A stretch of 52,797 bases of DNA, the filler included, from Basidiobolus ranarum (Eukaryota), in NCBI GenBank assembly GCA_040143965.1. It is 2 parts of 2 records of this genome, joined end to end, with 100 filler letters (N's around TTAATTAATTAA, not from the genome) between each part and the next. Parts side by side here need not be neighbours in the genome. Positions count along the whole stretch, not along the records: positions 26,483 to 52,797 come from JASJQH010007008.1; 1 more part is not named here. One strand, given 5' to 3'. Position numbers and translations under genes: made by a program. Below, in pieces: positions 26,483 to 52,691 of this stretch (position 1 is the stretch's first letter; each line of letters starts with the position of its first letter). The notes under the pieces are model-generated. The model made no database searches and was not told the DNA's origin. It worked only from the letters and a program-made list of their open reading frames with translations.

Positions 26483-26558
26483 TTATTAGTAATACGTAGC
26501 ACCTCTATTTTATGCTAAGAACTTACGTAAGCTTGCTGGTATTTGAGTTAACATCAAT

Positions 26559-39715: not shown

Positions 39716-40090
39716 CACCGGCCTACCAAGATAATTTTGTACTGCAGTATATGAGTTAGTAAAGTCGAAATCTGTTATAGCTATTTGAATTTAGAATAAA
39801 ATGTAAATCTGAACCATAATTGATGAACCATACTATGCTTAAATGATCCGACCTCACATGAAAATGAGTGCAAATGTTGTTTAGATTATGCCACTTCTTA
39901 TGAATAAAATAATAGTCGATTTTAATGATTTTGCAACTATGTTTGGTAATAAATTCAGAAAACTACTTGTTATAGGGTTGAAACCCTTTACAATTCATAA
40001 TTAAACACAAGAGAACTCAAGGCTGCGTTTGCCTTGTATAGTTACTCATTTGACACTTGAGTATTTTAAACTTGTAAAAATATTTCCAAA

Positions 40091-41680
40091 ATGACTACAT
40101 CTCCGGTGCAAACATTACAATATACACCGGTTGCTTCCATGATTCCTGAGATGGTGTATCCACCAGTTCCAGGAGAGACTCATGCTTTTTATGGAGACCA
40201 TCATAACAAAGGGGTGAAACTCCCTGACCGTTCTCACCTTAAGTTTAATGATTCTAACTTACCTAATCCTCTTAACTCTGAAATCCCCAATCAAATTCAA
40301 AAAGAGATTAATGAGCGCCTATACATCGCAGCAGAAACCGGCGATGCTAATGTTATGTCTGAACTATTAGAAGCTATGGATGCTGCTACAAACGGGTCAC
40401 CATCAGGACTGATCAATACGCCTTCTCCATCCACTGGACTTACAGCTTTACATTATGCTGCTTCGCGTGGCCATCTTACATTAGTACAGTTGCTAGTAGA
40501 TTCTGGCTCCATCGTTGAGCTACCAGATAAAGAAGGAGAGGTAGATATACCCACTTTTGTTTTTTCTTTTATAATATCTTGCTTTTATATTGCTTAGACC
40601 TAACTGATTGCTTTTCTTAGACTGCACTACTTAAAGCAGCTTATAACGGATACCTAAGTGTTATCAAATATCTAGTTGAACATCAAGCCGATGTCAATCA
40701 TAAAGATAATGACGGTTGGACCGCTTTACACAATGCCTGCTCAAGAGGCCAACTGGATGTTGTACGCTGGCTTATCGAAATCAGTGGTGCAGATGTGAAC
40801 ATCAGAAGCAAAATGGGACATACACCTCTAAGTAGGCCATATGAATGATTTGTTTTGAAACCTTTACAAGAAATTGAGCTGTAATCTTGCTTTTGTTTAG
40901 TTAATGCTGCATCCAAAGGTTATCTTCATATTGTGAGATATCTACTAAGGAAAGGAAAGGCCAATCCACTGATCAAGAATAAGTTTGGTGAAGCCGCATA
41001 CGATGTCGCGGCCGTCAGTATGGAGGCACAGGTGTGTGAATTATTGGAAAGAGCAGAAAAGGACTGGTGGAGAGCTCATAGAAAGCCTAGCGCTGGTAAG
41101 AATTTCGTAAAACTGAATTCAGAATTTTGTTAGAACATTCAATTGATATCATAAATAATTGATAGGTGGACCTCCTGTAGTCAAAGAGAAGTACGACATG
41201 ATCGCTTCACACAATACAATTCTTGTAATTTTACATGAGAACCAGCGGTCTACATCAAGCTTCCGACTTCGGTTCACAGCACCCAAGTTTTCGATAAGTG
41301 CGCTTTCAAAGTCCGATATACGTGGCCCCTGGTCTTTAACTAACGGGGAGCCCAAAGACAAAGAAGATATTCACTTGCCCACGCCTCCCGAATCCTCGCA
41401 ATCTACGTCTGATTCTTGGTTTTGGCTTACTGACTGGCAAGTTGACATCAAGCATCTGCAAGTTGATCCGGAAGAAGGATGGCAATACTCAAGATCATTT
41501 GACTGTCTAGAAAAGGAATGGACCCCTTCTGCGCCTGGTGCTGGATCTGGGGGTAGCTGGGTAAGAAGAAGAAGATGGTTCAGAGCAATGAAGCGTCAAG
41601 TGGATGTTGCACAGTTGACTCTGGATGAGTCGGACGACAACATATCGTTCAACAGCCAAGAAGCGATCTCTAGTTCATAG
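40091..41680 (+). CDS. Ankyrin-repeat protein with C-terminal dysferlin (DysF/Pex24-type) domain, 4 exons
   Basis: GLTALHYAASRGH, GWTALHNACSRG, GHTPLINAASKG; DysF motifs WFWLTDWQVD, DPEEGWQYSRSF, WVRRRRWFR. Confidence 0.85.
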
Positions 41681-42396
41681 AGAGTATGTTTTCAGCAGCC
41701 AACTCTCGTAATACCATATGTTTATTTGTTCACTCCATATGCATCCCACCAAAGAAACCATGAATATCCCAATTTTTTCTATGAAGAACTGATTTATTTA
41801 TATAGTCGAACTTAATATGCTTCAAATCGTACAATAAATCACAAACGATACCAGATATGCTACTATATAGCTACAATCAATGCTGTGAGCCATCTGAATT
41901 ACTGATGCTTTATTGATGCGAATGCTTGTGGTGTTGACTACGATTCGCTCAGTTCACATGTAAAATTTTATCTCGACTGTTGCATCGTCATTCACCATTT
42001 CACTACTAGGCTGGTCTCGGCTTACCCATGGCACAAATCTCTGGCTCACACTGCGATTGTAAAAAAAATCCCCTTTCCATTTTCATCTTTGTGCTAACCA
42101 TTCTAACCTTTTCTTTCCCCATCATTATTATATCTTTATATTATTCTATTTATTATAGTGGGTAATATTTCTCTTCGAAGCGACTCCATCGTTAGAATTC
42201 CCCAAAGAGATACCACTACATAGTACACGACACGTAACATTGAAGAGTGTTAATTACACTACAACAATTGCATACAGGGTACACTCTAGAGACAAAATTC
42301 ATTATAAATTCTACCCTGAGCTTATTATTCTCCTTGTGTCTTTCTACTCTCCTACGCTCAGATATTTCTTTTCATCCCATCTGAAAAACCTTTAGT

Positions 42397-45300
42397 ATGA
42401 CTATTGATAAACTCTTTCTCGGTAAGAGCTTCTATATAGTTGGCTTCGACGATATTCGATATCAACAATTGTATGACAATATTGAAAGTCATGGGGGTAC
42501 TGTTATCCTAGATGCTTTTATGCCAGCCAAGGTAATGTCATACTCTAAAATATTTTTTGACTTTCCTTCCTTGATTCTCCTATTATGACAGGAACATTTT
42601 TCCACATTCTTAAAAGCAAACCACCACTTCAAAACTCTTGACTTAGAGAGTTCTTTTTTATACTTTATAGACTTCCTATGTTTTGACTACACCTCATATT
42701 TTGGAAGCTATGAAAGACATTCTTTCAGAATTGTTGGCTTTTAACATACCAATTATTGATGAAGGTTTTGTATGGAGTTCTATACAACAAGGGATTTTAG
42801 TCAATCCGGAGATGTTTGATCTAACACGGTATGGGATGACTTTCTTTTCTTAGATATTCTATGTTGAAGCTTCCAATAGAGAATTATTTGCTTTCACATA
42901 CTTGATTATTAACCTTCTCGTTGTTAGGGAGCTATCTGTCACATCAAGAGGTGAGGAACTTCCGCGAGTTAACCTAAATTCTAACAGTAGTTGGTCTACA
43001 GCCAGTGATTTACCGGCTCATCACGACGCATATGGATATGAAATTCCAAGTAGTGACGGCCCTGCACCTAACGACCATTCTACAAAGCCTAACCAGAATC
43101 CGGACCAACCCTACTTCAAGTCAGTGAAATTCGACCGTGGTAATTCAGCGGACTCTGACTCCGATGATGGCGAAATGGATGACTATGACGACAAGTCTTT
43201 CATGGCCACACCTAGCATGGAATATGAGAATGTTGAATTAATTCAGGATAATCAAGCACAAGCTATTCATAGAGAACGGTTGGAATGGCGTGGTATGTTG
43301 GCTTCTGTATTGACTGGAGAGGTAATCAAATCCGAAAAGATGCGCATATCGGATTCCTTAAAGTCTAAGCAACAAAAGGCCGCCTTAAGCTATCAAAACT
43401 GGTTAGGCATACGTGCTTTGCTGAGACAAACAAGTGTTCTTCATGAGAAAAGATTTTTAGAAGAGGCTCGCTCCCAAATCGATGGCGTATTGCAGGAAGT
43501 GATTGGATTTCGGATTACAAATCGCTCAATCCCAGCCATAGAGCAAGTCGCAGAAATTTTGCAAAAAGTAGATCAAGTTGAAAACCTTTATCCAACTCGT
43601 AAAGCTATCATGGATGACAATCCTCTGTATGCGTCTCAAGAATTCCAATATAACTTAGACGCGTTGACTTCGTGGTGTACGGTTACCATGAGCATTCAAA
43701 TGCAATTGAAAATTCTCAAGAATTGGACTGGTAGTGACAGCCTACAGGTAGCGAGACCCAAGGATACGCCGGCGAATCCTGACGAGCCTTCTTTCATTGA
43801 GCGGATTTTAAAGGAGAACGGATTGCAGCGTACTTTTGAAAAACGTACTCTCTCTACCCTCAATTCTCTTCTATCCAAAGCTAAAACAAACATGATTGAG
43901 AATGCATCCGCTTACTCCGATATGGATTTGCCATCGTACACCAATGAACTTCGACAGCTGGTCAGGTTCCCTACGAGCTTAATGGAAGAATGTTTGAGGC
44001 TACGTTTAGAATACGCAGAGCGCGTCACTGATCCCACTAATTTAATGTTGGATCAGATGTCCGAAGATTTCAGAGTATCCTTGTCATTGGCGTGCCGAAT
44101 CAAGCATGAGTATCAAGAATTAACCCAAGCAGCTCCCGGTTGGGAGGTGCCTAATTGTATCGATGAACAATACGATTCGGTGCTTTTTGATAGCTTGAAG
44201 TATTACCTCAAATTGCTGCACTGGAAGCTCAAAGGTGGTAGTAAGGCCGTTTATTTCAAAGAGGCGGAAATCCTAGAAAGCGAATTCAATTTCTTAAGCG
44301 AAGTTTCGTTATACATTGAAGGTGGAGAGTGGGAGACTGCTGAACAACTTTGCTCACTGACTAACCGATTGCTCTGTCGTGTTCTTCTCTACTTTGAATC
44401 TCAGATGCGAGTGCCACCGGAGATGCCAGCAGCTGGTCTGATTAAATGGTATAATCGGGTATTGGAAAACGTACGTATGGGGGTGAGAAAGTTATTACGT
44501 TTCTCCAAGTTGCTCAGCAATCAATATGAAAGTGCCACTGAGTATATCTTCGAGCCGAGTAACCTGGACCTCGTACTAGGAACTCTCAGTGCCTCGGGTC
44601 ATGTGTTGGTTTACACTGGTTCCTTCGAAAGGGATGGACTTTATATCTTAGTCGACCCAAGTCTATGCCAAAAGCCGAATTTGGTGCGGAGACTAATGAG
44701 ATCGTGCATTTGCAACGAGAAGGAAGATATGATTAACAAGGAAAGCTATATGCTGATCATCAACCCCGGGAAGCGTGAGCTTGTGTGGCACGGCCAAATC
44801 ATTCAGATTGACGTAGAGTATATGAATATCAACCTCGGTATCAACCGTATTCGACTCATTTCGGAGAGTTCTGGTAGTCTTCCAGAGAGTAATCGTGTGT
44901 TTGCAAGCAGAACGGAGGGGATTGGGATAAATGTTATCCACAATCAAAAGTCGCATATTCCCAAAGTACATAAGGAGCAGAACAAAATCAAGAAAACCGT
45001 TTTCAAATTGGCTGAAACAATCCTGTTTAATGTCAATGTCATTCGGGAAGCTACCAAGCATGCGCCTTCTGTAGATTTAATTGAAAATTGCTTTACCTTC
45101 GCTTCCGACTTCGGACAGCGTGCCTTAAAATACATGGAAATTGGAGTTAGATCACAACTGAACTTGCAAATGATGCGTCTGGCAATCGATTGGGTAACCT
45201 TTGTGGTATCCGATTGTGTGCCTACTGAGAAGAAGACCTTCCGTTGGGCTGTAATTGCCTTGGAGTTCGCCATGCAAATGACTAGGGCTAATAACATCTT

Positions 45301-46782
45301 GCTACTTAGCGATGAAGAGTTTGAGCTTCTCCAAAGTAAAGTAGCAATATGTATGACTTTGTTGGTATCGCATGTGGATATTGCTGGAGCTAGAAGCGCC
45401 CATGAAGCAGTGCACCAAGCTGAACAGGAGAAACAAAGCAACATGGATGCTGCTATGGATGATCTTAGCAAACATCTACAAATGACAGTGTTTAGCACTT
45501 TCGCTAGTGATAGCTCTCTAATTGCCGTCCGGGATGAATGGATGCGAAAGCTTAAGGAAGTAGATGACTATCGAACCTCAAAAGAACAAGATGCCAGACT
45601 CATCGGTAAGGTACTAGATGATAATCGTCCAGAGGATCGTAGTTTGGTATTCTTAGCCTCCTCTTCAAGTAATATTTCACTACGTTGGCAACAAGGAAAG
45701 TTCATTGGAGGTGGTACTTTTGGTTCTGTGTATCTTGCAATTAACTTGGACAGTGGTGATCTCATGGCTGTCAAGGAAGTTCGGTTCACAGACTCTTCCT
45801 CGCTGACTGCTTTACACAAGTCTATCCAAGAAGAGATGTGTATTATGGAGAGTCTCGATCATCCAAATATTGTCAAATACTTCGGCCTAGAGGTGCATCG
45901 TGACAAGGTGTATATCTTCATGGAGTATTGTCAAGGTGGTTCACTGGCGGACTTACTTGAACATGGCCGTATCGAAGATGAAAACGTCGTCAAAGTTTAT
46001 ACACTGCAGATGCTTCATGGGTTGGAGTATCTCCATGAAAATAGTATTGTGCACAGAGATGTCAAGCCTGATAGTAAGTATCAATTTTCCCTCATTTTCG
46101 TCAGTTCGATGGTTCTAACTCATTTTCCTATTAAGATATCCTACTGGACCATAATGGCCTCATCAAGTTTGTCGATTTTGGTGCAGCTAAAGTTATTGCC
46201 AAAAACCAAAAGACTATGGGACGTGCTACGAATAATCAACAAATGAAGGTAAACAGCTTGACGGGTACACCAATGTACATGGCGCCCGAAGTTATTACAG
46301 GTGGAGATCGTGGTCGTCAGGGTTCCCAGGATATTTGGTCACTTGGATGTTGTATCCTTGAGATGACAACGGGGCGTCGTCCATGGTCCAATTTAGACAA
46401 CGAGTGGGCGGTCATGTATCACGTAGTGACAGGCCATCCACCACTTCCCGATCCATCCCAATTAAGCGAGACGGGTATGGATTTCCTGAAGAATTGTTTC
46501 ACTAGGTCTCCTTCAAAACGTCCTACTGCTCAGGAGTTATTACAGCATCCATGGGTCAAAGACATAAAAGACGTTAATATGGATCAACGGTGGTCTGCTG
46601 CTCTGGCTACTGGCTTAGTGAATGGGTCACCGGCCAACTCTTTTGCGGGTATTCCATCATTACCAAGCATGGGGGCTTCGTCGAGTACCACGTCAGTTGG
46701 TCTTTCTACTATCCGAGAGGAGGGATTTTCCAATCCTTTCAGGCAGATTGAGGCTGCCAATGGCTTAGAATCTCACAAATGA
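42397..46782 (+). CDS. SSK2: Stress MAP kinase kinase kinase (Ssk2/Wis4/MEKK4 family) with predicted N-terminal BRCT-like domain
   Basis: RERLEWRGMLASVLTGEVIKSEK N-terminal Ssk2 motif; kinase motifs RWQQGKFIGGGTFGSVY, HRDVKPDN, DFG, GTPMYMAPE, LDNEWAVMY; upstream exons 42397-42531 and 42671-42828 splice in frame to 42928. Confidence 0.9.
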
Positions 46783-49179: not shown

Positions 49180-51125
49180 CTACTTTTTGAGTGTACCAAT
49201 GACACATTCTGGGGAGTATTTTTCGATTACATTAGGCTCATGTAACATGTTGAATTCTTTGGAAGCATCTCTGCCTGCAAAGAGTAAAATGGATTTTTTG
49301 CCTCCTGGATGGTCACTTAAAAAATCGGTAACATCGAGGACTTGGCCATTAACCACAACCCAACAGTCCTTTTCAGTATTGTGCTTAGCGATATCGTCTA
49401 GTGAGTATTCTTTCAATTCCACTTTCTTTGGCTGCTCCTTTGCTTCTTGGGATTGCTCCTGTTTGCTAGCAATAGCAGGTGCCTGTTGGAATCCGTTACC
49501 ATTCACTTTGATGTCTACCTGAACTCGATTCTCTTCTGGGACTACGTTTAACTTGATTTGTGCTCCAAGTTGATTTGCTAAGTTCACCAAGCGTCTGACA
49601 GCTACTTCAGATTCAGAACCGACTGAGGTTGAAGAGGCGAGATTTTGGAACATATAACGTGAAGCACTGTTGCCAGCAACTCTACCGAACACTACGCATC
49701 CCAGAAGGGAACTACCACCTAGACGATTGGCTCCATGTACGCCACCAGCCAACTCACCGCAAGCGAAAAGACCTTGAATTAATCCATCAGTTCCTTTAAC
49801 TCTCGACTCAGGATCAATTTCGACACCACCCATAGTGTAATGAAGGACAGGTGTCATCAATGCGACATGATATTCATCGTTCATCTTGAAGGGAGCATTA
49901 TGGAAGAAACGTTTCCCGAATGGATCATTCTTCTTTTCGGCATATCCATTGTATTGATTGAAAGTTTCCTCCAACATCTTAGGATCACATCCCATTTCTT
50001 TAGCTAATTCTTCACCACTTGCGAACTTTCTCATCAAACCACGGCCTACATAATGCTTACAATGCCATTCGAGACTACTTGAAGCACTACTGTTGAGAAG
50101 TAAACGAATAGGAGACTTGGTCTTCCACATCTCACCAGTAACATAATCACGATGTCCCAATTCGTCACAGAAACGCTTTCCTTCTGCGTTAATTAGGATA
50201 CCCCCTACTCCACGCAGTGCCTCTGCCGCCAAGAACTTCACCTTAGCTTCAGGATCCTTGGGGTCGATTAAGCCGGTAGGATGTACCTGAATTTTATCCA
50301 TGTGAATCATACTTCCACCGATGGACATAGCCATCTTATGACCGTCACCAGTAGAGAAATCACCATTCGATGTAGGGAGATCGACCCATTCTGGGCGGTA
50401 TTTTTTAATCAAAGAGTTATCAGTGAAATCAGCAGCAAACCCACCGGTAGCTAAGATAACGGGACCATACTCTATGAATTTCTCTCCCTTTCTTTCGTAT
50501 TCAATACCGATTACGGCATTATTATCATCACGTATAAGATTAGTTGCTTTAGCCTTAGTTATGCACTGTACACGATGAGGTTCTTTCTTGGCTAATTCCT
50601 CCAGCTTTTCCATCAAAGCGTAGGTGATGGTCATACCAGGAAACTTTTCTTTACCACGATGGGTACGTTGAAAGGAATGTCCACCCAAACGAGATAATAA
50701 TGAAAGATCTAGATTGAATCTTTCCTGCAACCACTCTATGGCCGAAGCGCTATCACCAGTTAAAACTTTAACTAATTCTGGTTGAATCAGATCACGAGCT
50801 GACTTGGCGGTATCTTCATAAAAAGCCTCGACCGAGTCCTAAAAGTATTGATTCGATCATTTAGTTAAAAAGGAAAGATTCAAGGGGGGGGGGGGAGAAT
50901 GGAGAGTTAGCATAAGCAACCAACCTGAATTCCTTGTTTTATTTGAGTGCGTGTTAAAGCTCCGTTGATTCCAGAGGTTGCTTTGGTAGAGTTACCACCG
51001 TAGAACGAACTTTTATCAATCAATATGACGTTACCGCCACATTCATAGACAGCATGAGCAGCAGCCAGACCGGACAATCCACCACCTACAACGATTGCTT
51101 TATGCTGCATAGTTTGATTTGACAT
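49180..51125 (-). CDS. OSM1: Soluble FAD-dependent fumarate reductase (Osm1/Frd1-like) with C-terminal cytochrome b5 domain, 2 coding exons (intron 50839-50924)
   Basis: VVGGGLSGL, GGNSTKATSGING, QVHPTG, LAAEALRG, HYTMGG, GVHGANRLGGSSL; b5 heme motif DHPGG. Confidence 0.93.
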
Positions 51126-52691
51126 GACTAGTGAGTGAAGTGCAGTTAGTAAAATAGCACCAGAGTCAGTGATGTTGTGATTACTTACAAGTAAAATAGA
51201 AATGAAAACGATAGATTTTGAAAATCCCTCAATAACCAGACCCAGCTTTTATTCTAATATTTGTTAAGCAATAATATCGATCTTACCAAAACGGTGGTAT
51301 GACAAAGTTTTTTGGAAACATTCTCAATGATTTCGAGGCTTAAAGGTCTAGTCCAGAGCCTCTCCATATAGCCATCGACTAATTCAACCTATAGCCACTA
51401 GCTAATGTAACCTTCCAAATTCCACCTTCCCCGCTACGAAACCGCCAATTTCGATATCAAGTGATACGAAGTAACTCCAGGTCCATGATACATTCAGTGA
51501 GAGGATATCCTTGACATCTCTGGTTTGGCTCTTCATGGTTCATATTGCTAGCAAGGTACCCTTCGACCACTTCGGTAGAATTCAATGAAAAACAGGAATC
51601 AATAAAAAGCTGGGGTGTGTAATCTATCCAAGTTAAGCAATTTGTTGTGTTCCGAAATACCGAATTGGAGTTATACTTTGGAATATTCGTTACATAAGAT
51701 CATCTAGGTTGGTTTGGAAAATATCTGCGGGATTAATGTAAACTTACCTGGGATGGATATAATCATCTCCTATGATTTTCCTTTATATAATAATCCAGAA
51801 TAGTCAAATATCCGTATTCGCTCCAGAATAATCAAAGAGCTCCAGAATCGAGATCATGTTCAAATCATGGCTTAGGCTAATTTATCGAAAAAAGTACTCG
51901 TGTTTGAGATATAATGTGTAAGCAGTCTCCAAGAATCTTCTGCTATGTGATAATCATATGAAGGTATGGCCACAGTGTGGCTTTCAATTTGACTGAATGC
52001 AAGTCACTTGTAAACTCACTCGTAAGACCAATAGATGTATGCACTAGTAGTATGTTCATCTGCGCCCACATTGTTAACGTCTGTTTAAAGTGGGGAAGTC
52101 TACTAACATGCTTAGGCATTATAGGTCAATCTAGAACGAAGGATAACTGGAACATAATGATTTATGCAGAACGATGGGAATTTTTTGGCATTAATGGAAA
52201 CTGTGGAGTCTGGGGGTTGTCATACGACTTGAATGTTGGAGCGTCTTGACCGACATATCTTAGGATAATGATCAAAATTAATATCTATATTGATTGTTAT
52301 CTAGTAATAGCATTAATATTGAGGGGAATAAAATATAGAGAAAAGTTAATTGGGATAATTTTGAGTAAGCATATACTCGTATTAGTGATCTTGTCTACTT
52401 TATACCCATTATCTCCCATAAATTTATGAACAGTTTCCTCACATTTTGTTGAAATTGAATAGTTAAGCGACATATTCTATGTACATGTGAATTTGGTTCA
52501 TATATATATATTTCTTATTTCCAATCCACCCCACAACAGATTATCTAGCAGCGTTTCTCTACACTACCTCTTGTCAACTAACAGTATCAGTTCAGCCCTT
52601 TCAATGATGAATGAATACTGCATTTAACATGAATGTGATGTTAATATCCTCTAACTGTTGAGGTAATTTGGAAGTTGCTGGAAGTGATTTG

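Follow-up and report, generated by a model that had tools for sequence, protein, structure and literature searches.

The mitogen-activated protein kinase kinase kinases (MAPKKKs) of the Hog1/Sty1/p38 pathway, namely Ssk2 and Ssk22 in Saccharomyces cerevisiae, Wis4 and Win1 in Schizosaccharomyces pombe and MTK1/MEKK4 in humans, share a C-terminal STE11-type kinase domain and a MEKK4_N region. They form the entry point of the pathway, and signals arrive at their N-termini; the known inputs there are Ssk1/Mcs4 and GADD45. In this report, we describe an Ssk2/Wis4/MEKK4-type gene from Basidiobolus ranarum (assembly GCA_040143965.1). The window, i.e. the whole stretch of DNA that was analysed, is 52,797 nucleotides long and consists of two parts joined by 100 filler letters; the gene lies in the second part (positions 26,483 to 52,797, record JASJQH010007008.1). 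We found that this gene very likely begins with two small exons that encode a BRCT domain in one reading frame with the kinase, and, from the sequence evidence laid out below, we put the probability that the BRCT is a real part of the kinase product at roughly 0.85. The Ascomycota Ssk2 orthologues examined have no BRCT, whereas the window's protein carries this extra domain before the N-terminal input region.

The initial annotation had placed the two small exons, their frames and their GT-AG signals, and had joined them to the kinase frame. These assignments were borne out, and we added to them an intron within the kinase domain (Table 1). When the four exons were spliced by their coordinates in a script, they yielded 1361 codons with no internal stop, the frame ending at codon 1362. 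An in-frame TGA (42382-42384) lies a short way upstream of the start codon, and the 3′ boundary of the BRCT falls within exon 2, near 42793. That the BRCT exons are spliced onto the kinase is something we infer from several lines of sequence evidence. A codon table trained on exon 3 was applied to exons 1 and 2 and to introns 1 and 2. The proposed frame scored +9.2 bits in exon 1 and +5.8 bits in exon 2, with no stops; the other frames of these exons scored from -23 to -34 and contained 3-5 stops, and every frame of the two introns was negative, with at least one stop each. Further, the frame of exon 3 runs free of stops for 107 codons ahead of its first ATG (43175), an event with a probability of about 0.0012 given the base composition, and an upstream start exon is therefore required. 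The coding score of the part of exon 3 that lies 5′ of this ATG is likewise positive. By these measures, the spliced structure exceeds what is expected by chance.

Table 1. Predicted exons and introns of the Ssk2-type kinase gene, in positions of the window.
Feature	Positions	Strand	Size	Signals or predicted content
Exon 1	42397-42531	+	45 codons, phase 0	start codon (ATG 42397) and first half of the BRCT (strand 1, helix 1, strand 2)
Intron 1	42532-42670	+	139 nt	GTAATG...TATAG; GT-AG
Exon 2	42671-42828	+	52 codons and 2 bases	second half of the BRCT (strand 3, helix 2, strand 4, helix 3) and start of the linker
Intron 2	42829-42927	+	99 nt	GTATGG...GTTAG; GT-AG
Exon 3	42928-46073	+		completion of a split Arg codon; acidic linker, MEKK4_N region, kinase N-lobe
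Intron 3	46074-46135	+	62 nt	GTAAGT...TTAAG; within the kinase domain, between HRDVKPD and NILLDH
Exon 4	46136-46782	+		kinase C-lobe, C-terminal tail, stop codon

Outside models of the same gene contain junctions of this structure. The closest homologues are Basidiobolus Ssk2/Wis4-type MAPKKKs, designated P0001, P0002 and P0003 (91%, 87% and 85% identity, respectively). P0002 is a B. ranarum protein of 1361 residues, annotated as “Suppressor of Sensor Kinase (SLN1)”. It has the same length and the same exon-derived architecture as the spliced window protein, including a BRCT at residues 3-82, and the two are collinear, with 87.4% identity over 1362 columns. They open with the same peptide and are identical at 81 of 98 N-terminal positions (80% for the exon 1 peptide against the start of P0002, 85% for that of exon 2). 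The P0002 model contains all of the junctions, and the joined frame aligns with it gaplessly at intron 3. It differs in representing another species or copy, and its annotation is automatic, with a precomputed Pfam label. In B. meristosporus, the models (P0001 and P0003) take as their start Met codons that lie inside exon 2, and they continue into exon 3. Thus, the junction between exons 2 and 3 is found in three outside models, and that between exons 1 and 2 in one (P0002).

Two models from Massospora cicadina concern the same region. One of them (P0031) has no BRCT strand 1 and looks truncated or mis-spliced; the other (P0271) has strand 1, and so supplies the first half of the domain that P0031 lacks, and loses the frame right after “FKE”. 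Both diverge where intron 1 of the window aligns, and their sequences therefore suggest that the position of this intron is common to Massospora and Basidiobolus. For annotators, the structure described here is of some value, as several public models look truncated or split at the BRCT exons (P0001, P0003, P0031 and P0271).

On the evidence of sequence profiles and a predicted fold, the N-terminus of the window's protein (residues ~3-86) is a single BRCT, as had been proposed at the outset. Exon 1 alone matches the Pfam BRCT family (PF00533) with an E-value of 1.5e-4 and 22.4 bits, against a cut-off of 21.3, over profile positions 3-35 of 78; residues 3-82 of P0002 match positions 2-77 with an E-value of 2.8e-6 and 27.9 bits. 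A hidden Markov model (HMM) made from the BRCTs of Glomeromycotina and Calcarisporiella only aligns to residues 5-83 of the spliced window protein, spanning both exons, with 45.2 bits. The Gly-Gly turn after helix 1 and the aromatic residue in helix 3 are both present, as “SHGG” and “GFVWSS”; in a 13-row alignment (A1), which was used for fold prediction and for the family profile, G33 hardly varies and the F/W/Y column is conserved. The initial annotation had called for a comparison of the first ~100 residues with BRCT folds, and we carried this out on the orthologue P0002. An AlphaFold2 model of its residues 1-100, made with A1, has a mean predicted local distance difference test (pLDDT) score of 79.9 and is ordered strand-helix-strand-strand-helix-strand-helix, matching the b1-a1-b2-b3-a2-b4-a3 order of the BRCT fold, in which three helices flank a parallel sheet of four strands. 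With this model, Foldseek returned 47 matches in the PDB at E-values up to 0.001. All of the rows listed were BRCT-bearing chains or entries (PARP4, Rev1, XRCC1, TopBP1, Rad4, ECT2, Fcp1, Chs5 and BRCA1), and the best query TM-score was 0.76, to Rev1. The A1 profile matched 28 distinct PDB sequences at E-values up to 0.01, all from BRCT-bearing proteins, including Rad4, ECT2, RFC1, PARP1, PARP4, TopBP1, REV1 and DNA ligase. A complex prediction for two copies of P0002 1-100, in which the alignment went unused, scored 0.10 against a mark of 0.32 and has no bearing on dimerisation.

Outside the Ssk2 family, relatives of this BRCT are found in other settings. A search of a library of 1.84 billion proteins with A1 retrieved 1422 proteins at E-values up to 0.001, and none of the best 150 representatives carries an Ssk2 body (BLAST against residues 200-1361 of P0002, E-value 1e-5). 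Pfam scans of 25 of these representatives revealed multi-BRCT proteins, single-BRCT proteins or fragments, BRCT-WGR(-PARP) proteins and one BRCT-NACHT-TPR protein; among the best single-domain matches scanned, 3 of 13 were of the BRCT-WGR(-PARP) kind. The BRCT-NACHT-TPR representative (P0243, 1464 residues) has an N-terminal BRCT followed by DUF4062, a NACHT NTPase and TPR repeats, and is another case of a single BRCT ahead of a signalling module.

The remainder of the protein is an ordinary Ssk2/Wis4/MEKK4 orthologue, and the original assignment of the kinase to this family holds on its Pkinase and MEKK4_N matches and on the gene tree discussed below. Exon 3 matches MEKK4_N (PF19431) with an E-value of 1.8e-22 and 79.4 bits, against a cut-off of 24.9. 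Pkinase is matched by exon 3 (E-value 6.9e-32) and by exon 4 (1.2e-29, profile positions 129-263 of 263). The catalytic motifs HRDVKPDN (which crosses the intron 3 junction, HRDVKPD ending exon 3), DFGAAK and GTPMYMAPE are readable, and named Ssk2/Wis4 proteins are the best matches of the window. The large ESM Atlas clusters nearest to P0002 are Ssk2/MEKK4-like; no BRCT is among the three families shown per cluster, which is uninformative. A second model, of P0002 residues 1-267, was made with an alignment that extends from the BRCT to the anchor (A2). In it, residues 1-86 form a block with pLDDT values of 75-93, residues 87-204 fall below 50, and helices begin at residue 205, at the conserved “ERLEWRGMLASVLTGE” stretch. 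Judging by this model, the acidic linker of ~118 residues is probably disordered and tethers a compact BRCT module to the kinase body.

The architecture recurs in other fungi. A homologue search gave 636 matches among 7999 scored candidates, and the best 120 of the 636 were analysed. Ten of the 120 bear a precomputed PF00533 label; they are from B. ranarum, Rhizophagus irregularis (two clusters), R. clarus, Funneliformis, Ambispora, Calcarisporiella, Acaulospora, Gigaspora and Cetraspora. We scanned 22 of the 120 with Pfam: nine were above the BRCT cut-off (E-values from 2.8e-6 to 5.8e-14), two were below it (Geosiphon, 0.0037; Massospora, 0.0021), and 11 had no BRCT at E-values up to 0.1 (Saitoella, Syncephalis, Gilbertella, Mortierella, Umbelopsis and six shorter Glomeromycotina models). 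When an A1-derived HMM was run against the 120, the BRCT of 12 of them and of the window reached at least 82 bits and P0001 gave a partial match; none of the remaining 107 exceeded 5.1 bits. BRCT and kinase lie in one polypeptide in models from Rhizophagus, Funneliformis, Ambispora, Acaulospora, Gigaspora, Cetraspora, Geosiphon, Calcarisporiella and Massospora. Like the window's protein, the orthologues of Glomeromycotina and Calcarisporiella have one N-terminal BRCT, the acidic linker, MEKK4_N and the kinase; examples are P0019 of Gigaspora margarita (named “MAP kinase kinase kinase wis4”), P0004 and P0006 of R. irregularis and P0011 of Calcarisporiella thermophila. They differ in having ~40 extra residues ahead of the BRCT, opening with “MK..VRF”, and their BRCTs are 22-31% identical to that of Basidiobolus. 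A survey of orthologues for this architecture, suggested in the initial annotation, thus finds it in Glomeromycotina, Calcarisporiella and Massospora. Within the best 120 homologues, no BRCT was detected on the Ssk2 orthologues of Mucorales, Umbelopsis, Mortierellomycotina or Ascomycota (for the last, in 0 of 11 orthologues in the tree and in none of the Ascomycota rows of the A1-HMM survey). Two further protein searches, both limited by candidate crowding, gave 8 matches with A1, all known before, and 21 with A2, of which P0271 was the sole new BRCT-bearing model.

A tree was built with FastTree from 46 rows, comprising 45 of the 120 homologues and the window; unnamed environmental rows, truncated Glomeromycotina models and many near-duplicates were omitted. 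It follows fungal taxonomy, with the window inside a Basidiobolus clade of 100% support. The BRCT-bearing Calcarisporiella has as its sister group Umbelopsis plus Mucorales, in both of which the domain is missing (support 99). The pattern of presence takes three changes, with P0001 and P0003 counted among the bearers and the truncated Syncephalis model provisionally among the non-bearers. These sequence relationships indicate that the architecture is inherited rather than local, and they are compatible with a single ancient gain followed by several losses, or with as many as three independent gains. An HMM from which the Zoopagomycota rows had been left out gives the Basidiobolus BRCT 45-48 bits, a score that 15 unrelated BRCTs among the 150 best database representatives exceed.

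In BRCTs that read phosphopeptides in the classical manner, strand 1 ends with a Ser/Thr-Gly pair and helix 2 contributes a Lys; most such BRCTs occur as tandem pairs. In the 12 sequences of the Ssk2 family, the strand 1 Gly is kept in 11, and the residue before it is Ser or Thr in none: it is A or V in Basidiobolus and H, Y, L or F in the others. In the BRCT of RFC1, we take the phosphate-binding residues to be the Thr of “VITGV” and the Lys of “GQSKS”. Where the Thr aligns, the Ssk2 family has a hydrophobic or aromatic residue. The column aligned with this Lys holds Lys in 0 of 12 sequences, N in eight, M in three and L in one. Helix 1 starts with K in the Glomeromycotina, Calcarisporiella and Massospora rows, whereas Basidiobolus has an R one position before this. 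A1, read by eye rather than through a computed mapping, shows an acidic or Asn-rich start to helix 2. There is no tandem pair: each protein has one Pfam stretch, and residues 87-204 are predicted to be unstructured. Because the pocket Ser/Thr and Lys are absent, classical reading of phosphoserine peptides is improbable. The best structural and sequence matches, PARP1, PARP4, Rev1, XRCC1 and RFC1, have BRCTs that are single like the window's and that sit in DNA-repair or replication proteins. Of these, RFC1 retains the Thr-Gly...Lys pocket, as placed on the alignment, and the Ssk2 family lacks it. The nearest relatives of the window's BRCT are thus single domains of the kind found in PARP, Rev1, XRCC1, RFC1 and ECT2, which bind proteins, DNA ends or poly(ADP-ribose).

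Several points weigh against the picture drawn above. The junctions are supported by sequence logic and by outside gene models that may themselves be purely predicted, and exon 2 by itself has no Pfam match at E-values up to 10. P0001 and P0003 are without exon 1, which fits a shorter product as well as it fits a miss in annotation. The fold was predicted on P0002, not on the window's own protein. The A1-HMM survey is circular for its own source rows, and the mapping of the pocket Lys depends on one HMM alignment and on the residue numbers assumed for the pocket. As the survey covers the best 120 homologues and many of the models are truncated at the N-terminus, the absences from lineages are weakly supported; chytrids, Blastocladiomycota, Kickxellomycotina and non-fungal MEKK4 are beyond its reach. 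Finally, the leave-out HMM does not support common descent of the BRCT across phyla.

Some of these points would suit a different gene structure, in which the small exons are a separate gene or isoform encoding a stand-alone BRCT protein of ~105 residues, and the kinase starts from ATG 43175. Retention of intron 2 would indeed end the frame after 8 more codons (the open reading frame 42671..42853 ends in a stop), and the missing exon 1 of the B. meristosporus models could be read in the same way. This structure is nevertheless hardly credible: it does not account for the 107 stop-free codons and the positive coding score upstream of the kinase ATG, this upstream part is conserved within the coding sequences of P0001, P0002 and P0003, and models from nine other genera join BRCT and kinase in a single polypeptide. 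A BRCT that belongs to the kinase product, the reading we prefer, might still read phosphopeptides or DNA damage in the classical manner and pass signals of genome integrity straight to the Hog1/p38 cascade, which is the role that the initial annotation had inferred. BRCTs are typical of DNA-damage proteins; the nearest solved relatives (PARP4, PARP1, Rev1, XRCC1, TopBP1 and Rad4) and the BRCT-WGR-PARP proteins among the closest single-domain matches are in keeping with this idea, as is the basic residue at the start of helix 1 in most family members. In mammals, DNA damage reaches MEKK4/MTK1 through GADD45, which binds at the N-terminus. Nonetheless, we consider a role of this kind improbable, and the direct input was not supported, as neither pocket residue occurs in any of the 12 sequences, the helix 2 start is acidic or Asn-rich, and a lone BRCT followed by a poorly predicted linker does not resemble the well-studied readers, most of which are tandem.

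It is also conceivable, albeit doubtful, that BRCTs were added to Ssk2 independently in the Zoopagomycota and Mucoromycota lineages by convergent domain shuffling. To the leave-out HMM, the Basidiobolus BRCT is no nearer to those of Glomeromycotina than 15 unrelated BRCTs are, the pairwise identity of the two groups is just 22-31%, and the Basidiobolus models have no counterpart of the “VRF” motif found ahead of the BRCT in Glomeromycotina and Calcarisporiella; the tree, with three changes under either scenario of origin, accommodates separate additions. What speaks for a single origin is that the domain has the same size and the same position, ahead of the acidic linker and the conserved “ERxEWQ..SVLTGE” helix, that the BRCTs share deviations from the consensus (no Ser/Thr before the Gly and a long helix 2), and that the gene tree is otherwise vertical.

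As to function, we tentatively suggest, at somewhat less than even odds, that the BRCT is a flexibly tethered docking module on the Ssk2 kinase. On this view, the domain would recruit the kinase to a partner or keep it in a regulated state, a role additional to the usual response-regulator (Ssk1/Mcs4) input, and its putative ligand would be of a non-classical kind. A possible working model is offered by analogy with the RhoGEF ECT2, in which BRCTs likewise stand at the N-terminus before a catalytic signalling domain; ECT2 BRCTs rank among the best sequence matches in the PDB (4n40, E-value 6.3e-9). The BRCTs of ECT2 autoinhibit the catalytic domain, which is released on partner binding. ECT2 differs in having three BRCTs, a phosphopeptide pocket and a GEF instead of a kinase. 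A bolder and, taken as a whole, quite improbable proposal is that the ancestral Ssk2-type MAPKKK of terrestrial fungi had an N-terminal BRCT as a second, response-regulator-independent input to Hog1. Glomeromycotina, Calcarisporiella, Basidiobolus and Entomophthorales would then have kept the domain, and Mucorales/Umbelopsis, Mortierellomycotina and Dikarya would have lost it; as its input, the domain might, for instance, dock to a BRCT partner of the PARP type or another type, or to ligands that are ADP-ribosylated or nucleic acids. If so, nuclear or genome state would be coupled to stress signalling in coenocytic fungi.

We regard the BRCT-bearing kinase, which occurs across several early-diverging fungal lineages, as an undescribed variant, of modest interest, within a familiar kinase family. 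Its conserved extra domain in arbuscular-mycorrhizal fungi, Basidiobolus and Entomophthorales points to an input that the yeast and mammalian models lack, and a small, foldable domain provides a concrete handle, e.g. in pull-downs, for finding that input. This value is tempered by the lack of specific support for DNA-damage reading and by the fact that automatic annotations already show the fusion. Indeed, with PF00533 labels on 10 of the best 120 homologues, a sister-species orthologue of identical architecture among them, the fusion is visible in databases, which goes part of the way towards the wide annotation that the initial annotation had named as counting against its reading. In open-access texts, supplements excluded, we found no description of a BRCT on an Ssk2-type kinase and no discussion of P0002. 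Passages of PMC10037146, PMC4177888, PMC12111849 and bioRxiv 10.64898/2026.07.25.740670 describe none; a Rhizophagus high osmolarity glycerol (HOG) paper treats Ste11, not Ssk2, and the passages from a Blakeslea MAPK survey and a fungal PARP preprint mention no BRCT on a MAPKKK.

Many fungal Ssk2 orthologues (P0004-P0013, P0019, P0020, P0024 and others) carry a short conserved motif at the N-terminus. Glomeromycotina and Calcarisporiella have it as “MK..VRF”, several Ascomycota as “RGVRF” and Mucorales as “R(K/R)VRW” or “VHW”; the motif presumably resembles the RVxF-type phosphatase-docking motif. The Basidiobolus models and the window are without it, and no upstream exon with a “VRF” motif was seen in the list of open reading frames for 41681-42396. 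An additional 5′ coding exon may nevertheless be spliced to the AG at 42394-42395. Another N-terminal peculiarity is that of P0014 (Entrophospora sp.), in which a ubiquitin plus ribosomal L40e unit is fused to Ssk2; this is most likely a merge of two neighbouring genes.

The kinase gene is preceded on the same strand by a multi-exon ankyrin-repeat gene (40070-41680), three pieces of which match Pfam Ank families; its last open reading frame piece (41159-41680) has no clear Pfam family. About 716 bases separate the end of this gene (~41680) from ATG 42397. On the minus strand, at 49180-51248, lies a gene with at least one intron whose product combines a fumarate reductase-like FAD_binding_2 domain with a C-terminal cytochrome b5 domain.

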